Shown here: positions 1,547-9,697 of the stretch, piece after piece
Numbering within the stretch: position 1 is the first letter of the stretch
How the letters are laid out: each line of letters opens with the position of its first letter
Assembly (NCBI GenBank): GCA_963811165.1
Contig: CAWEQH010000004.1
Location: 416,001 to 480,000 of the forward strand
Source of the DNA: an uncultured Nitrospiraceae bacterium
GTDB taxonomy: Bacteria; Nitrospirota; Thermodesulfovibrionia; Thermodesulfovibrionales; UBA6898
Direction: 5' to 3'
DNA: 64,000 nt
Made by a program: the position numbers and the translations under genes
Notes under the pieces: model-generated
What the model was told of the DNA's origin: nothing
The model's input: the letters and a program-made list of their open reading frames with translations, nothing else
Databases searched by the model: none

Positions 1547-2968
1547 GAAGTTGTCCCGTCCTTTTGTTGAAGTAGAAAGGACCCCGGTTCATTATCCTAA
1601 GCTGCGGCCTCCTTTCTGTCAATGGATTTTTGCTGCAAGGCAGCAATGAGTTTTGGGATTTCCTTATAGCCCTTCACACGCTTAAATTTCTTTTCGGCCC
1701 TTAAGAGGGAAGCTACCGCCCACCTCTGGACCATATCATCGCCCCTCCATCGTTTAACCCTGCCGGTGATCGTCCTTGTCACCGAGAAACAGGACTCTAT
1801 GGGATTGGTCGTCTGGAGAGTCTTCCTCAAGAAGCCCCGTAACTCCAAGCTTGTGTACGGTCAGCGTCTCCTCAAGTCCCTCTTTCAGCGAGGCTGCAGC
1901 GCTCGGGTTCAGCTTCTCAAGATACTTCACCGTCAATTCCAGTGACTTCTTGGCATCGTCATAATCCGCCATCTTGTATGCTGCGCTGATGCGGGCATCT
2001 ATGGCGTGCTGGTGCTCCTTGGGAAGATGATCAAGCACGTTTCTCCGCTTATGCTGCTGGCATCTCTGTACTGCCACATTTGTGCCGAACATCTTGGAAA
2101 CAGCCGATCTCAGGGCCTTCGAACCATCAAGGACAAACAGATAATCCTTCCCGGTGTTCAGCCCTCGCCTGGCTATGTCCTCAAGGAGACTCGTGCATAC
2201 AGTGGCGTTCTCCGTGGCCCCCTGCCAGAGCCCCAGGACATGCTTTCTGCCGCCCTTGTCCAGGCCCAAAGCCACGACAAGCAGATGCCCCTTGAATGCT
2301 ATGCCGTCGATAAATATCGCAACAAGGTCAAGCCCGGCAGAGGTCCCTCTCCAGAAACTCCCTCATCTGTTCCGCCGTAGCCTTCACAAAATGCCTGCTT
2401 ACACTGGATTTCTTTATGCCATAGCCTTTGACGAAGCCCTCAACCGCCTCCTCATAATTGCGGCTCGATATGCCAAGGACCATATTCTTCATTACCGAGT
2501 TCCTCATGCCCCTGGGATCCCGGAAAGCCTGAAACGTTGCAAGCGGAATCTCCTTGTTGTCCTTGCCTCTTAGACGAGGACGGTCTATCAGCACCTTCTG
2601 CTTGTCGTAATATACCGGGCTGAGATCGCTGCCCCACCAATTGGCTGCCCTTAAAGGATTCTTTGAGTCCTTAGCGCCCAGCTATCATCTCGCACTCAGA
2701 ATCCATCGCCGCCGACATGAGCAACAGCCCCGCCTCCTGCGCCAACTCCCTGATTACCTCAGGCAGGCTCTCGATAACCCCAGCCACCGGCAAGGGAAGT
2801 TCCAACAATACACTCCCATCGCCGATCTCCCTTACTTTTCCGTTTGCCTTTTTCTGCATATTCCGATATCTTTTCTTCATAGAAAGCGATCTCCTTTTAG
2901 TTTTTGATCTGGTAATCAATTCTAATCGGGGGTCGCTTCCTACTTCAACAACTTACAGGGGCATCTTC
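1547..2968 (-). mobile_element. IS256-family insertion sequence
   Basis: Imperfect TIRs GAAGTTGTCCCGTCCTTTTGTTGAAGTAG and (rc) GAAGATGCCCCTGTAAGTTGTTGAAGTAG. 9-bp TSD GGTGTGAAG at 1538-1546 and 2969-2977. Confidence 0.9.
1597..2880 (-). pseudogene. IS256 (Mutator-type) transposase, frameshifted into several ORFs
   Basis: Motifs LGISSRNY, LDGSKAL, QRCQQHKRRN and TTNPIES lie in different frames (real decay or sequencing indels). Confidence 0.85.
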
Positions 2969-2977
2969 GGTGTGAAG

Positions 2978-3807
2978 TCAACAGGCTGGTGGGTGAGAAA
3001 GGTATTTGTGGTACCGGACGGGCAGCCATGGTGTCGAGCTTCACTCCTCATTTTGGAGAGGAAGACCCTCTGGTGGGGACCGACGGCTCCGGGACCATCT
3101 TTATGACCAATTGCAATCTCCTCTGTGTGTTCTGTCAAAACTGGGAGATCAGCCATCTCGGCGAAGGAAGCGAAGTGGACTCTAAAACCCTCGCCGGCAT
3201 GATGCTGCAACTCCAAAGGCTGGGATGCCATAACATCAATTTCGTTACCCCAACGCACGTAGTCCCTCAGATACTCGATGCCCTGGCTTATGCCGTAGAC
3301 AGCGGTCTCAATGTACCTCTTGTCTACAATACCGGAGGCTATGATTCGGTTGGAACCCTGAAACTTCTGGAAGGGGTTTTTGATATTTATATGCCTGACT
3401 TTAAATTCTGGGACCCTGAGATGGCCCGCAGGTATTTGAAGGCCCCGGATTATCCGGATAGGGCCAAAGATGCTATAAGGGAAATGCATCGGCAGGTGGG
3501 TGATCTCGCCTTGAATGACAAAGGCATCGCGCAAAAGGGGGTCCTCCTGCGCCACCTCGTCATGCCGGAAGGTGTAGCAGGGACGAGAGAGATCATGCGT
3601 TTTATCGCCAGAGAAATCTCACCTGACACGTATGTAAATATAATGGATCAATATCATCCGTGCGGCAAAGCAAGCAAATATCCACCGCTCGACCGCTGTA
3701 TTACCCATGATGAATATGAGGAGGCTCTGAGAGCGGCCCGTGAAGAAGGCATAAGAAGATTTGATAGACGAGAAAGACGGATGAGAATTATTCCCCGGAC
3801 ATGGTGA
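2978..3807 (+). pseudogene. PflX-like radical SAM protein, C-terminal part
   Basis: HFGEE, GSGTIF, CNLLCVFCQN (CxxxCxxC), HNINFVTPTH, YMPDFK and RHLVMP motifs. Confidence 0.85.
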
Positions 3808-4115
3808 ACCATCCTAAGGTCTGTGGTTGTAGTTGCCACCACGTGACCTGACGGACAATGTCTGAAAAGATCGGCATAAGTGCACTCCTACAAAAAAACA
3901 GAATTGAAAAACTATGTTTATCGGTTGGTTCTCACAGTAACTAACACTCTCGATCACCCCGATTAGACTGAAGAGTACAAGTTGGATTGCTCAGCCAAAT
4001 ACCAAAATGCCAAGCCTGATAATCATATAAAAGGCACCTCCTGAGCATACTGGGTAGTAATTCTGACCTGATATGCTTAGGAAAAGAGACCAATCTCAAC
4101 CTATGGAGGTGCCTT

Positions 4116-5135
4116 ATGAAATTGTACGCGGGAATCGATCTTCATTCAAGCAGCAGTTATCTGGCAATTATTGACGACAAGGGAGTACGGAAGTATAGAA
4201 AAAAACTCCCCAACAACCTTGAAGGAATTCTTCACGAGATGAAGCTGTACAAGAAAGGGATGGCGGGAGTTGTGGTGGAATCGACATACAACTGGTACTG
4301 GCTAGTAGACGGATTGGAGGCAGCGGGGTATGCCGTGCATCTTGCGAATCCCTCGGCGATACAGAAATATAGCGGTCTGAAACATGCCGATGACAAACAC
4401 GATGCCTTCTGGCTTGCTGAGATGCTGAGACTGGGGATCTTGCCCGAGGGCTATATTTATCCGAAGGAGGAGCGTCCATTGCGAGACCTATTGAGGAAAC
4501 GAGGCCACCTGGTAAGACTGAGGACTTCCCTCATTATCAGTCTTCAGAACATCATCAGCAGAAACTGTGGAATCAGGCTCAACGTCAACGATGCCAAACG
4601 GCTCAAAGAGAATCGCGTGACGCCTCATCTTGAGAAAAATGAAGATCTTCGTTTGGCAGGCGCTGTCAGCAAAGAGTCAATCGATTTTCTCACTCGGCAG
4701 ATCAAGAGTATAGAGAAGGTCATCGAGCCAAAGATCGAACTCAAAGATCAGTATAGACAACTCCTCTCTATGCCGGGGATCGGGAAGGTCCTTGCCTTGA
4801 CCATTATGCTTGAGACCGGCCCGATATGCCGGTTCAAAAAAGTTGGTAACTATGTATCATACTGCAGGAAGGTGGGCTCCCAGTGGACCAGTAATGGCAA
4901 GACTAAGGGAAAAGGGAATAAGAAAAACGGCAATAAATATCTGGCATGGGCGTTTTCCGAGGCAGCGGAACTTGCTCGACGGTATGATGCTCAAGTAAGA
5001 GCTTACTATAACCGGAAACTGCAAAAGAGCAATCTCATGGTGGCCCATAGTGCCCTTGCGCACAAGCTTGCACGGGCAGCGTATTACATTATGAGAGATG
5101 AGGTGCCTTTTATGACGGAAAAGTTGTTTTCATAA
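4116..5135 (+). CDS. IS110-family transposase/recombinase (DEDD RuvC-like plus Tnp20 domain)
   Basis: GIDLH, VVEST, DDKHDAFWLA, PGIG and SNGK catalytic-region motifs. SD GGAGG. Confidence 0.92.
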   Translation: MKLYAGIDLHSSSSYLAIIDDKGVRKYRKKLPNNLEGILHEMKLYKKGMAGVVVESTYNWYWLVDGLEAAGYAVHLANPSAIQKYSGLKHADDKHDAFWLAEMLRLGILPEGYIYPKEERPLRDLLRKRGHLVRLRTSLIISLQNIISRNCGIRLNVNDAKRLKENRVTPHLEKNEDLRLAGAVSKESIDFLTRQIKSIEKVIEPKIELKDQYRQLLSMPGIGKVLALTIMLETGPICRFKKVGNYVSYCRKVGSQWTSNGKTKGKGNKKNGNKYLAWAFSEAAELARRYDAQVRAYYNRKLQKSNLMVAHSALAHKLARAAYYIMRDEVPFMTEKLFS

Positions 5136-5139
5136 TAGG

Positions 5140-5400
5140 ATGGCTGGAACGGTGAACCTGTGCAGCGGGGTTGGAAAAACCACTAAGCCTGATTGGAAGC
5201 CGTTCCACCCGGATTGCAGCATCGTTACTGCCCATGTCGCGAGCCTAAACGGGGCTGGTTAATAACCACGAGACCTGTAATCATACACTTGGACGCGATA
5301 TGGAACCGAAGATTTTCTGGGTCGCTGATAGGCGGCAAGGGAGCTGGATATGAAGCTCATCCGGTGTCCTTAATCCTGATGGGTGACTGGTGCAGTATAC
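5140..5400 (+). ncRNA. Putative bridge RNA / seekRNA of the IS1111-type element
   Basis: Stem TGGAACGG (5145-5152) / CCGTTCCA (5200-5207) encloses GCGGGGT (rc of the right flank) and AAGCCTGA (left flank). ATGGGTGA (5379-5386) matches the element's right end. Boundaries approximate. Confidence 0.7.
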
Positions 5401-5551
5401 GCTGACACCAAAATGATTGAAAACATCGGCAAGGGTAATGGTTCGGCAACCGGCGTATGCAGTGCAAGAAAAAATCCTTGTTAAAAAGGATATGGTGAAT
5501 ATTTTGTTCTTGACACGGTGCCTTTTAATGGGTGACCCCGCCATACCTCTT

Positions 5552-6238
5552 TCATCCATATATCACTATTGAATTGGTTTCGGGATCTAGGGCAACCCTA
5601 TCCCCTCTTCTTTTTTCTCCAGAGTACAAATGATCATCCAGAGAATATGCCACTAGAGGCCTAAGACTTCTGCCCGCATATTCAAGTGTCTTGAACAGAT
5701 AACCGATAAATGAGCCCGAATAACGGTAGCGGCGGATACAGCCCTCGATACGCACCTGAATCATATCGTCAAGCCCTTCCCAGCACGATATCTTTGGGTA
5801 CTGCTCGATCCACTCATCGATAGTGAGCCTGACCAATTTAATAATTTCTCGTTTAGCAGCTACGTTTCCTTGTTGAGCGATTCTTACCAGCGCAATGCTG
5901 ATGATATCCCGTATCTGCCTATCGTGGGCATCTGCCGGAGATAGAAACGTATAAAGTTTGTCGTGGTATTTTCTCAGAATAATCTCAACCACCCTTTTGC
6001 CTCTGATGCCTGCTGGAAGTCTGCCCCTGCGTGACGTCTGCCATCTTCGCTGTAATTTGCGGTCCAAAGCACGCGTGAATTTATCCCAATCTATGCCGCC
6101 GCTTTCAGCTCTAATGTTTTTCTGAATGAAACGATAAACATCTGGAGCATGTTGTCGTATCCAGGAACTGCAAAATGTATTGGGCTTTATCGCCCTGAGA
6201 AGCCTGTTTATTGCTCTAACTGAAGAGGCAAAATCCAT
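5552..6238 (-). CDS. Hypothetical basic protein (C-terminal half loosely sigma-factor region 2-like)
   Basis: 228-aa ORF co-oriented with the defence genes. No confident family. Confidence 0.6.
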   Translation of the reverse strand: MDFASSVRAINRLLRAIKPNTFCSSWIRQHAPDVYRFIQKNIRAESGGIDWDKFTRALDRKLQRRWQTSRRGRLPAGIRGKRVVEIILRKYHDKLYTFLSPADAHDRQIRDIISIALVRIAQQGNVAAKREIIKLVRLTIDEWIEQYPKISCWEGLDDMIQVRIEGCIRRYRYSGSFIGYLFKTLEYAGRSLRPLVAYSLDDHLYSGEKRRGDRVALDPETNSIVIYG

Positions 6239-6258
6239 GAAATTAGCTGTCCGACAAT

Positions 6259-6600
6259 TTACTTCTTTCTGTGGACCTCATCATGACAAATAGTGCAAAG
6301 CGTAATTAAATTCTCTGCCGTGTTTTGCCCGGCTTTGGCGTGCTGTTGGATATGATGAAGCTCCAAATGACGCGGATCGGACGGATTCCATTCTGCATGA
6401 CTCCACCGGCATTTTGTACATCTATATTCATCTCGCCTCATTACGGCAGACCTGACAGGGTCAGGAATTCTTCTATCGTGCTCAGGGCTTTGTCTGAGGG
6501 ATTCAAGGACATACGCCCCGACTGCCAAATCTGGCCTACCGGTATTTTTTGTAATAATTGGCCAGCCGAATTCCGTTCTTAACTCACGTACGCGGCGCCC
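6259..6600 (-). pseudogene. C-terminal fragment of an HNH restriction endonuclease
   Basis: RRVRELRTEFGWP...RDEYRCTKC...LELHH...NLITLCTICHDEVH. The frame opens right after the upstream stop with no proper start. Confidence 0.7.
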
Positions 6601-6603
6601 GAC

Positions 6604-6849
6604 TTAGAATCCTAATTCTCCGTCCTCCATCTCCAGGGCTAAAGAAAGAGCTAAAGCATTTGATAACATAAAGCTTCCATAGTCTTTTGCAAGGCGCAAT
6701 AAATGATCCGCAGCTTTTGGGCTCCAATCTCCATGACTTGAGAGCAATACCTTAATTTTTTCAGGATCACGTATTCCTTTGTCAGTTTTTTTCATTATAA
6801 GGGAGCGATATTCATCCGTCAGTGATTTGATATACTCAGGATTTTCCAT
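6604..6849 (-). CDS. Small hypothetical protein (81 aa)
   Basis: ATG at 6849 with an AGGAG SD: MENPEYIKSL...EDGELGF. Confidence 0.6.
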   Translation of the reverse strand: MENPEYIKSLTDEYRSLIMKKTDKGIRDPEKIKVLLSSHGDWSPKAADHLLRLAKDYGSFMLSNALALSLALEMEDGELGF

Positions 6850-6869
6850 GCGCCTCTCCTTTCTAAAAC

Positions 6870-7652
6870 TTATTTTTGAAAAACATTTTTGCGGTGCCAT
6901 TCCAAATGACTCTGTGACGGCAGAAATCTTCGCGGTCTGATAATTGGTGCACCTTGATAACAGCAAATCATTTCTTTAATTCTTTTTTCGCCAGACCGCA
7001 GTAGCCGAGTCGAGATCATGATCGAAAGATCGTTTGATATAGTAATAAGCCCGTTATCGAACAGTCGGTCAAATGTGGCGCTTAGACACAAGCCATTATG
7101 TGGATCTGTGCGAAATCGCTCGTCTTTGCTCCAAGGAAGAATGTGACTAGCAACAAGACATTCTCGAACACTCAAACCCGTTATACAGCAACTGTTCTCA
7201 TAACTGCTTAGTACTGTTTCTCGAAAGAAAGCTTGATGTATACGAGCCTTTGCCTTTGCTTCTTTTTCTGATGGACCCTTTGGCAAAGCAAAGTCCTCCT
7301 CTAGGTCTGCCATTACTTTCTCCTTTATTGGGAGCCTATCACGTAATCGTCTTTCTTCGAGAACCAATTGGTTCCAGTTGCTATTAAACTCATCCCATAT
7401 TTCTCGGTCTAGCTTGCTTGCATGAGCAAGTCCTGTTATATGCTGTCGTCCTAGTTCGGGATCGAACGAGCCGAAATTTCCTAACTTTCTCGCAACACTC
7501 GCAGGTGACCTGTTCAGTGCCTTGGCCAATGTTATCACCTCAGGATTATTCGCTTTCGTTTTCTTGAAAGGAATCCGACAATACAATCCAAATGCAAGAA
7601 TCAATTCGTCTCGATTCCAAAGTGAGCCATACTTCTCGGGCCGTCCTTTCAT
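6870..7652 (-). CDS. HNH endonuclease (putative restriction endonuclease)
   Basis: CCITG...LVASHILPWS...NGLCLSATFDRLFDNGLI, with an N-terminal WxRDELILA...RSPASVARKLGNF domain. Confidence 0.85.
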   Translation of the reverse strand: MKGRPEKYGSLWNRDELILAFGLYCRIPFKKTKANNPEVITLAKALNRSPASVARKLGNFGSFDPELGRQHITGLAHASKLDREIWDEFNSNWNQLVLEERRLRDRLPIKEKVMADLEEDFALPKGPSEKEAKAKARIHQAFFRETVLSSYENSCCITGLSVRECLVASHILPWSKDERFRTDPHNGLCLSATFDRLFDNGLITISNDLSIMISTRLLRSGEKRIKEMICCYQGAPIIRPRRFLPSQSHLEWHRKNVFQK

Positions 7653-7656
7653 CTAT

Positions 7657-8781
7657 TCAAACCTCCCCACGTGGACTGAAAGAATCAGGAAAACTCTGAA
7701 GTCTTGCAGCCTCCCTGTGCGTTATGGGGCGGTGTTGCCCTGGATGGAGATATCGGCCTTTTTCAGGCTTAAAAAACTCCGTCCTGATTGTAAAGGCAGG
7801 TCTGTCCCACCATAATCGGCCAAATAGATCGGTGCCGCCTGTTTTTTTTCTTATCCAGCATCCCGGCGTTAAGTCTGGAGCCCGTTTCAACAGATCAAAA
7901 CGGTTCATGCCCTCTTTCGGTATAGCCCTGTAACGCTTTACGCTGAGCGGTGTCGGAGACCTGCCGAAATGAAGGTCCAAAGGCGGCGCTTCATAGCGAA
8001 TATCGGTCCCGACAGGAGGGGGCAAATCTCCAATCAGATCTCTGACTGTCCTCCATCTTTGAGGCGTCGAAAGATAATCTTCTTTGTCGAATAAATTTAT
8101 AGTCGGCTGCCGTCCGTTTCCGTTGGGGTTGAAATGAGTTTTTCTGGGCGGAAATATAAAATTAGGATCTGATATTTTCGACCCTATTATAAAGGCTCGC
8201 CAACGAGTTTGAGGTACGCCATAATCCGCTGCACACAACTTACCATGACATATTTTATTAAATCCGAGTTTAGCAGCCATACCGACTATTTCGCCATGTT
8301 CGAAGCTGCCGAGAATTTGCGGAACATTCTCTATGACAAACACTTTTGCTCCCGACCTTTCGACTACTTCCAAAAAAGGCCTCCACAATTGATTCCGGGG
8401 ATCATCTTCCCTGTTTTTATTAAGTAAGCTGAACCCTTGGCACGGAGGGCCTCCGATGACGACATCTGCGCGCGGTATTTCTACAGAGGGCTCATTCAGC
8501 AGGTCGACAATGTCGCCTTGCACACAATGATCGCCGAAATTTTCATTATATGTATCTATGCAGTATTTATTATTGTCATTGGCCCACACCGACTTGAAAT
8601 GATGGCCGAAACTCTCGGTGAACCCGAGAGTCATTCCACCGGCACCACAGAAAAGATCAATTAATTTGAACCGTTTACTTGGTTTTGTGAGTTTGTTTTT
8701 AGCTCGGGCTTTGTAGGTAGCCTGATCTTCCTTTATGAGATGCTTCTTGATTGAACTATTACTTTTATATCTTATGGCCAT
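7657..8781 (-). CDS. DNA (cytosine-5) methyltransferase, C-terminally truncated
   Basis: Motifs I (DLFCGAGG), IV (GPPCQGFS), VI (ENV), VIII (QTRWR) and IX (REAARLQSFP) present. Motif X (GNAV) absent. Confidence 0.9.
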   Translation of the reverse strand: MAIRYKSNSSIKKHLIKEDQATYKARAKNKLTKPSKRFKLIDLFCGAGGMTLGFTESFGHHFKSVWANDNNKYCIDTYNENFGDHCVQGDIVDLLNEPSVEIPRADVVIGGPPCQGFSLLNKNREDDPRNQLWRPFLEVVERSGAKVFVIENVPQILGSFEHGEIVGMAAKLGFNKICHGKLCAADYGVPQTRWRAFIIGSKISDPNFIFPPRKTHFNPNGNGRQPTINLFDKEDYLSTPQRWRTVRDLIGDLPPPVGTDIRYEAPPLDLHFGRSPTPLSVKRYRAIPKEGMNRFDLLKRAPDLTPGCWIRKKTGGTDLFGRLWWDRPAFTIRTEFFKPEKGRYLHPGQHRPITHREAARLQSFPDSFSPRGEV

Positions 8782-8890
8782 AACTCACTTGCTGTATTAT
8801 AGAATATTTTCAGTAAGACAGGTGAACGGAGATGCGCTTTAAGGACGGGAAGATTACAACGTCCTTGACGGAATTCCGGGGTGCTTGTAA

Positions 8891-9697
8891 TCAGGTGGCC
8901 CTTGGATCAAGATATGCCGCCTTCCTCCGAGAATCTGCATTCTTTGTATGCGCCTTTTTCCACCTGAAGTATCTCTGTACCTCGGCAGCGCACGGATGAG
9001 ATGGAAGTGAACATACACGCTCCCATGTGGTCTGAAGAAATCTGATCCCAGGCGGAACAGGATTTGCGAATGCGTCAGAGAAGAGACTCAGGCCGACAAC
9101 TGCTCTGACCGAAGCGGCCGGGAAAAGACGCTGCGAGTAATTCTTCAGAAACTCCCCTCGTAACTGAATCTGATCCTTGTCTTTCTGTTTCCCTTGTGAT
9201 CTCCCAACGCCGGATCGCCATTTTGCCTCGTCAAGAACAACAGCATTCCGGGTTATAATCCCAAAGTCGATCTCGGGTCCTCCTACGCTTAGAGTGTCAG
9301 GGTGAGGAATTCTTCGCCAGAGAATGACCTCGGCGTGATCGGCAGATGCACTTGGAAGGTTCAGCAGTCGAAAGAGATCGGTAAGCCAGCTTTTCAATAT
9401 ATCTCGCTGAGCCCGAGCGGCAGTGCCAAACACCGACCAGGTGATGGCGTCTTCACTGTGAAGAGACTGAAGGTCACAATAGTATCCAAGGCCTGATTCG
9501 CAGATTGCTCGCTGGTTATCGTCAAAGGCATGAACCTGTCGACTCTGATAAAGTTTTTGAACCACCTCAGGCGCGGGCCATGGATCACAACCCGTCCGAA
9601 TTAGGTTGTCGAACGGGTGCGCCGCTACACAAACGCCGCCTTTGCTATGCGCAAATGTCATTTTTTTGCCGTTCCAATCCTTCATTATTTGAATCAT
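8891..9697 (-). CDS. Hypothetical protein, possible PD-(D/E)XK nuclease
   Basis: SEDAITW...PEIDFG...LDEAKW matches the E...D...ExK nuclease pattern. Confidence 0.55.
   Translation of the reverse strand: MIQIMKDWNGKKMTFAHSKGGVCVAAHPFDNLIRTGCDPWPAPEVVQKLYQSRQVHAFDDNQRAICESGLGYYCDLQSLHSEDAITWSVFGTAARAQRDILKSWLTDLFRLLNLPSASADHAEVILWRRIPHPDTLSVGGPEIDFGIITRNAVVLDEAKWRSGVGRSQGKQKDKDQIQLRGEFLKNYSQRLFPAASVRAVVGLSLFSDAFANPVPPGIRFLQTTWERVCSLPSHPCAAEVQRYFRWKKAHTKNADSRRKAAYLDPRAT

Follow-up and report, generated by a model that had tools for sequence, protein, structure and literature searches.

RNA-guided recombination by IS110/IS1111 elements is already established, and the question raised by the locus studied here is what such an element does with one guide loop more than the two of a canonical bridge RNA. 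We analyzed a 64,000-nucleotide stretch of DNA from an uncultured Nitrospiraceae bacterium (the window) and found an intact, single-copy IS110-family element with an IS1111-type layout spanning window 4019–5534 (see table). The element appears real, readable, RNA-guided and ordinary in kind, and its interesting part is the third loop. Our preferred reading, to which we assign a probability of roughly 0.6, is a three-loop bridge RNA in which loop 1 reads the landing site, loop 3 (the donor loop) reads the joined ends and loop 2, a further loop for the landing site with looser reading, likely aids release. Sequence comparison demonstrates where the element ends, that its core is TG, how the RNA folds and that loops 1, 3 and, next to the core only, loop 2 co-vary with DNA; the existence of the third loop is well supported.

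Features of the element and its target site, in window coordinates
Feature	Position	Strand	Remarks
Left target flank, read by loop 1	4012–4016	+	same sequence as 5185–5189; contiguous with the right flank in IS-free homologues
Core TG, 2 nt, left junction	4017–4018	+	junction tallies, 115 elements
Left end	4019–4115	+	97 nt; first two bases are the loop 1 handshake partner; −10 box once circularised
Left sub-terminal inverted repeat, 11 bp	4028–4038	+	perfect match to 5517–5527, just inside the end
IS110-family recombinase, 339 aa	4116–5135	+	D8, E55, D93, D96 and S259
Loop 1, target-binding	5142–5210	+	9/10 stem pairs with compensatory change
Loop 1 parts		+	right-target guide 5165–5171; hairpin 5172–5182; left-target guide and core 5185–5191; handshake 5192–5193
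Donor-binding domain, multiloop	5223–5401	+	closed by 5226–5231/5392–5397; RNAalifold consensus
Loop 2, second target-type loop	5232–5303	+	nested in donor domain; 9/12 stem pairs with compensatory change
Loop 2 parts		+	right guide about 5250–5255; hairpin 5256–5268; left guide and core 5271–5277; A-rich linker 5278–5289, no handshake
Right-donor guide	5311–5317	+	predicted pairing 6/7 with top strand of core and left end
Left-donor guide and core (5379–5385), handshake (5386–5387)	5379–5387	+	guide tracks right-end variants
−35 box of predicted circle-junction promoter, TTGACA	5510–5515	+	
Right sub-terminal inverted repeat, 11 bp	5517–5527	+	just inside the end
Right end tip with core	5528–5534	+	left donor 5528–5532; core TG 5533–5534
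Right target flank, read by loop 1	5535–5541	+	reverse complement of 5165–5171

Searches with blastn and tblastn found no further copies in the element's own genome, and the ends were therefore defined from relatives, giving a right end of 399 nt. The recombinase matches Pfam PF01548 (RuvC-like DEDD) and PF02371 (Tnp, with the catalytic serine) and scores 186 bits against NF033542, for which the cut-off is 140. It can be aligned with ISCro4 and IS621, S259 falling at the serine region of ISCro4, and its five catalytic residues are invariant across 11 homologues of 40–74% identity. The proposal of an intact recombinase is supported. When the circle junction was built in silico, TTGACA came to lie 18 nt from GATAAT; the box is kept in 114 of 123 relatives, with a spacer of 16–18 nt in all 114, and this conservation of pattern and spacing agrees with the promoter predicted across the junction at the outset. 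For the linear element, a promoter scan returned three promoter-like sites against 2.5 expected and a terminator scan none, and an Rfam search gave no match at E up to 1. Viral contigs yielded 19 pattern matches, none of them confirmed, and contigs from four sequencing runs, whose cover is partial and which are not evidence on expression, showed neither a circle joint nor an empty-site joint.

Two further features of the ends were observed among the relatives. An 11-bp inverted repeat at 4031–4041/4105–4115, by which the left sub-terminal repeat pairs with the ribosome-binding site of the recombinase, is kept in relatives and shows compensatory change in L005, L011 and L014; it could dampen translation from read-through transcripts. 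In the right ends of L038, L042, L043, L044, L059, L131, L155, L170 and L106, the last 14–20 bases are tandemly duplicated, and the duplicated stretch, comprising part of the repeat, the donor tip and the core, looks like the result of recombination with the element's own end.

The empty target, originally a reconstruction, exists as IS-free DNA. A homologue in the same genus (L211, genome G304) is unbroken through the core over 113 columns (80%), as are two in the same family (L212 and L213, genome G310), and a second, IS-free copy of the target lies in the own genome at C1:495895–495929 (35 nt, 89%, E 0.003). The IS-free homologues hold one copy of the core, with no target duplication beyond this short core. 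Given these homologues in relatives and the second place in the own genome, we regard the target as a dispersed intergenic repeat. The repeat is at least 110 nt long (window about 3920–4018 and 5535–5544), the IS target being its tip, and L212 contains two copies about 1 kb apart with short ORFs between them. The target resembles the REP sequences of Y1 (RAYT) transposases. A link to these was not supported, as a Y1_Tnp match was found in only one of 100 flanking ORFs (100 of 175 candidate ORFs scanned) and the 10–12-mer target showed no over-representation across the own genome (12 vs. 17 and 16 vs. 13 expected). Insertions at imperfect sites are frequent among the collected relatives.

An IS256 (Mutator-family) transposase, split across several frames, occupies window 1597–2919 (−), and the radical-SAM gene region left of the element (window 3000–3981) has a 97% duplicate at G000 C5:7670–8650 that diverges shortly before the tip of the target repeat. 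To the right, window 5552–9697 (−) contains a 228-aa ORF with no Pfam or NCBIfam match and with a paralogue at G000 C8:19737–20373, a small HNH-like ORF and a DNA cytosine methyltransferase; an ORF of this region resembles phosphorothioate-binding restriction endonucleases below the cut-off, and the gene cluster looks like a defence island.

For the comparative analyses, we collected 80 loci from genomes, 80 from metagenomes and 30 by a phylum-wide search that gave a match in 22 of 301 genomes; with the window added and its duplicate L081 left out, this made 190 loci in all. The donor-loop anchor was present in 173 of the 190, the other 17 being truncated, interrupted or too diverged. We dropped L053, a duplicate of the L093 locus, as well as the right flank of L181, which is truncated, and parsed the junctions of L062, L082, L083, L085, L086, L093, L103 and L104 by hand after reading them. 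The parsed set comprised 172 elements, of which 170 had every loop and 115 had both junctions, and the non-redundant clusters numbered 78 at 90% and 48 at 80% protein identity. Co-variation z scores were computed over the 78 clusters with 5,000 shuffles, and three co-variation controls all gave z < 1. We additionally applied tree-independent pair tests on a transposase tree of 138 rows, the off-diagonal controls of which gave 3.5 vs. 4.1 and 2.7 vs. 2.3.

Junction tallies from the 115 elements corrected the core from TGA, as first proposed, to TG, the A being a handshake base. The two bases preceding the junction were TG, CG and TA in 109, 5 and 1 cases on the left and in 99, 11 and 5 on the right, and differed even between sibling copies; the base after TG was A in 110 of the 115 left junctions, where it is the element end, and A, T, C and G in 98, 8, 6 and 3 of the right junctions. 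Since the pair before the junction varies on both sides, while the base after it is set by the element at the left junction and variable at the right one, the core is 2 nt long. In loop 1, the two bases past the core are matched by the terminal dinucleotide of the left end. The corresponding two RNA bases of the donor loop co-vary with bases 1 and 2 of the right flank (z 12.8); on the tree, 4.5 of 6 pairs changed the same way (p 0.125), a test underpowered at only six pairs. These handshakes are of the kind described for IS621 in the available text of PMC11208158, but in mirror arrangement. In five elements at five different sites (L082, L085, L086, L103 and L104), the left end is one base longer and mismatched to the loop 1 handshake.

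The motifs on which the original prediction was built are all found at their positions (4012–4019, 5145–5152/5200–5207, 5165–5171, 5185–5192, 5379–5386 and TTGACA at 5510–5515), and the loop 1 stem extends, with one mismatch, to 5142–5152/5200–5210. Among 20,000 dinucleotide shuffles of 5136–5509, with the two same-sense guides scored as 9-mers that include the next base, single guides appeared 819, 44 and 95 times, both target guides together five times and all three guides never. Across clusters, the left guide of loop 1 agreed with the left flank of the same element at 4.69 of 5 positions (shuffled 3.01, z 19.9); for the right guide and the right flank, the figure was 5.81 of 7 (shuffled 4.65, z 13.0), and the 80% clustering gave similar results. 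The tree pairs agreed: loop 1 followed the changes at flank positions −1 to −4 in 18.6/20, 14.7/20, 14.1/19 and 11.1/16 pairs and was opposed in none. The co-variation of guides and flanks that had been put forward as a check is thus present among the homologues, and because the guides change along with the flanks, the RNA-guided reading stands.

To model the fold, we aligned the window with 39 of 114 distinct relatives. In the RNAalifold consensus, loop 1 forms a domain of its own and the donor guides and the branch 5232–5303 lie in a second one; the conserved structured region of about 260 nt has three loops. A 44-pair model, leaning to the window and these relatives because it was drawn from them, has 96.1% of cells paired and two-sided change in 24 of the 44 pairs, against 10.8 in shuffled data and 6–13 when slid along the alignment. 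The donor guide originally placed at 5379–5386 follows the right-end variants (z 8.6; the variants are few), but a second donor guide at 5311–5317 had been overlooked; it was found by direct sequence comparison and is too nearly invariant in relatives to reveal co-variation. We consider it almost certain that this is an element in which loops 1 and 3 have the roles given above.

Structured inserts of 215–346 nt, seven of them mutually related, lie between the stop codon and loop 1 in L002, L005, L011, L014, L026, L068, L069, L154 and L155 and widen the distance from the gene to the guide RNA. Judged by its right end, one element, L106 (G158:C308), seems to have landed within the guide-RNA region of a sibling, precisely in the space that separates loop 1 from loop 2. 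This conserved stretch of the family RNA gene is matched by the guides and the donor handshake of L106, whose own copy of it is altered. L106, the left junction of which lies beyond the contig, looks like an IS directed against its kin.

The original inventory of guides was correct for loop 1 but missed loop 2, which is built in the same way: after a CC/GG closure come a guide of the right-target kind, a hairpin of the form TGG..CCA, a guide of the left-target kind and then the core TG. Using a permissive pattern, we found loop 2 in all 173 anchored loci, with the core TG in 169 of 170, and it is visible in eight plasmid relatives of 34–49% identity. Past the core, an A-rich linker, variable and 10–13 nt long in 149 of 168 cases, takes the place of the 2-nt handshake found elsewhere. 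Between the left guide of loop 2 and the left flank of the same element, 3.80 of 5 positions agree (shuffled 3.07, z 10.9), and the match of the right guide to the right flank is weak (z 3.6). In the tree pairs, loop 2 changed the same way as flank position −1 in 14.9 of 20 cases and the opposite way in none (p 6e-5); the result was marginal at −2 (6.5/20, none opposite, p 0.03) and not significant at −3 and −4 (p 0.375 and 0.5) or, within the close set, for the right guide (0.9/14). Among the distant relatives (34–49% identity), which are few and strongly retargeted and for which the patterns were fitted after reading them, the right guide of loop 2 agrees with the right flank of its element (28 of 40,320 permutations, n = 8), and so, less strongly, does the left guide with the left flank (1,460 of 40,000 permutations, n = 9).

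Substitutions between loop 2 and the flank are biased toward wobble pairs, as pairing would predict, a guide T facing a flank C at −2 in 27 of 59 cases vs. 3 of 20 for the reverse, with 14 of 18 vs. 1 of 59 at −4; at −1 there is no such bias (5/57 vs. 3/27), and at −3 a G in the flank is mismatched in 20 of 26. As loops 1 and 2 are alike only near the core and the wobble bias is present at −2 and −4, pairing with DNA is favoured over copying between the loops, and target-type DNA is very probably the pairing partner of loop 2. The choice of site, by the same comparisons, is not made by loop 2: at 187 discordant left-guide positions in 136 sites, the flank agreed with loop 1 in 153, with loop 2 in 19 and with neither in 15, and over whole sites loop 1 fitted better in 103 of 114, loop 2 in six, with five ties (in the window, the scores are 11 for loop 1 vs. 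8.5 for loop 2). Past the core, the bases of loop 2 correspond to neither a junction nor the target (z −0.7 and 0.7), and loop 2 therefore appears neutral rather than actively pro-excision. Two other arrangements were considered and rejected: a reversed handshake matching the target (z −0.7; 36,864 of 40,320 permutations), and a hybrid loop in which the 5' guide would be directed at the left end, as by inspection this guide resembles a right-target guide.

In the mechanism that we propose, some steps are carried over from IS621 and ISEc11: the element would form a circle with a promoter arising at its junction, and strands would be exchanged at the core by a recombinase tetramer in which each loop is bound by one dimer. 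The handshakes of loops 1 and 3 match the two post-insertion junctions, and we infer that insertion would thereby be favoured and excision opposed, as in IS621. Loop 2 would mainly read one or two core-adjacent bases, its linker of 10–13 nt being unconstrained and the loop sitting within the donor domain. Lacking a handshake, reading loosely and placed in that domain, loop 2 may form a unit with loop 3 that engages the integrated copy, even at an imperfect site, free of the loop 1 lock. That the job of loop 2 is excision or copy-out is a tentative proposal, which we hold to be possible rather than probable. Somewhat more doubtful is the idea that the RNA encodes a direction switch, with loop 1 and the donor loop inserting and the handshake-free loop 2 and the donor loop excising, the excision unit possibly being freed by processing between 5211 and 5222.

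The behaviour of IS621 bears on both sides of this proposal. According to the available text of PMC13626964, handshake pairing sets the direction in IS621, excision being about 2,000-fold weaker than insertion, and the pairing that favours insertion opposes excision, with guide extensions raising the former and lowering the latter. The donor loop of IS621 by itself can, however, drive excision (PMC13626964 and 10.64898/2026.08.31.748434, as far as their available text goes), so that a dedicated excision loop may be unneeded. Further points against the preferred reading are the weak tracking away from the core and the five elements whose left end mismatches the loop 1 handshake, which nonetheless occupy five different sites.

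Loop 2 could instead serve insertion, as a device for target capture or proofreading: a second dimer would pre-engage the core-proximal target before loop 1 makes the final decision, or, in an alternative form, loop 2 would support direct transfer from a flank to a new target. This would explain why loop 2 tracks both flanks in the strongly retargeted distant relatives, and direct transfer requires two target-type recognitions. In the accessible parts of the reports, an RNA with only the target loop drives transfer from the left junction to a new target in CazIS110-1 (10.1101/2025.10.25.684509), and short target-only seekRNAs work in ISEc11 (PMC11187229). Loop 2 has, however, no handshake that would favour the new left junction, and it seldom decides the site (6/114), and we consider this role unlikely. 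Alternatively, loop 2 could be a reserve address, a target loop in excess that extends the choice of sites or retains the ancestral specificity during the reprogramming of loop 1. The distal positions of loop 2 do stay near the family consensus while loop 1 changes, and in L198 and L199 loop 2 resembles a complete target loop without the long linker. A spare loop would nevertheless not need to follow loop 1 at −1, which loop 2 does in 15 of 19–20 independent changes, and loop 2 is favoured, loop 1 being truly mismatched, at only 8 of the 187 discordant positions; we rate this explanation improbable.

Improbable too is a reading in which loop 2 pairs with no DNA at all and is a structural relic of an old duplication, resembling loop 1 through occasional copying between the loops. 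The firm tree support for tracking at one or two positions only would fit a relic, as would the one hairpin-loop position shared above chance (z 3.1). Copying should, however, homogenise neighbouring positions, yet −6 and −7 are unshared (z 1.3 and 0.9), as are five of the six hairpin positions and the bases past the core, and the hairpin lengths differ consistently. The wobble-biased substitutions indicate pairing, and loop 2 persists down to 34% protein identity.

We compared the element with the systems described so far. Besides the two Pfam domains, it shares with the IS110 family a seamless empty site, a target loop co-varying with the site and donor guides for both sides, and with the IS1111 group the sub-terminal repeats (7–17 bp in that group, by the available text of PMC11208160), the long 3' non-coding region, the predicted junction promoter and the guide order, the top-strand guide 5165–5171 preceding the bottom-strand guide 5185–5191. 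The original assignment to the IS1111 type thus holds for the layout, whereas the protein falls in the diverged ISGsu4 lineage. By inspection, it lacks the GL-P----S(t)G motif of IS1111 transposases (available text of PMC11187229), the catalytic serine lying in WTSNGK, and with this motif absent and ISGsu4 the nearest named lineage, the protein may not be an IS1111-family member in the strict sense. Within the ISGsu4/ISGsu5/ISShfr7/ISShwo5 lineage (ISfinder), a plasmid homologue of 48% identity, annotated as an ISGsu4-family transposase, shares all three loops, and the motifs of the ISGsu4 protein, compared by eye, resemble those of the recombinase here; the literature searched contained no experimental study of ISGsu4-lineage RNA.

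As presented in the available text of PMC11187229, the IS1111-family seekRNA elements ISEc11, ISPa11, ISKpn4 and ISPst6 share with the present element a short left end, a long 3' non-coding region, sub-terminal inverted repeats, a 330–350-aa transposase, a junction promoter and the top-strand guide 5' of the bottom-strand guide. Their seekRNAs, by contrast, are 82–96 nt and 148–172 nt long in the available text of PMC13604230, against about 260 nt with three loops here, and in the accessible text on PMC11187229 its authors report no second loop for the short RNA. IS621 and ISCro4 (IS622) share with the present element the DEDD and serine residues, separate target and donor loops, a 2-nt core and co-varying handshakes (PMC11208160, PMC11208158, PMC13626964 and 10.1101/2025.05.14.653916, in the text available of each); they differ in carrying the RNA in the left end and in having two loops, the reversed guide order and the core CT, and with its three loops the RNA here does not match the canonical IS621 type of exactly two. 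Many IS1111 orthologues have donor guides in a multi-loop, target guides there going without mention in the available text of PMC11208160. CazIS110-1 (available text of 10.1101/2025.10.25.684509) likewise has two target-reading units per element with different proposed roles, but there the second unit arises by truncation of the one loop, whereas loop 2 here is encoded separately, has a sequence of its own and lacks a handshake. A 2026 preprint reports several predicted donor loops at one locus and another many deviant bridge-RNA structures, in the portions available. The literature text searched gives no description of a second target loop; one may exist in drawn or published form elsewhere.

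How elements leave a site when their handshakes favour insertion is a live question, and the bridge-RNA and seekRNA groups disagree on the form of the functional RNA in IS1111-type elements. For a lineage with a right-end RNA, the analysis settles the core, the two donor guides and the two handshakes, all of which are needed for reprogramming, and relatives are present on plasmids of cultured bacteria. If the direction switch is true, one recombinase and one transcript would serve both directions, each separately programmable. A conserved, separately encoded and handshake-free target loop would offer a clean genetic handle on the question of excision.
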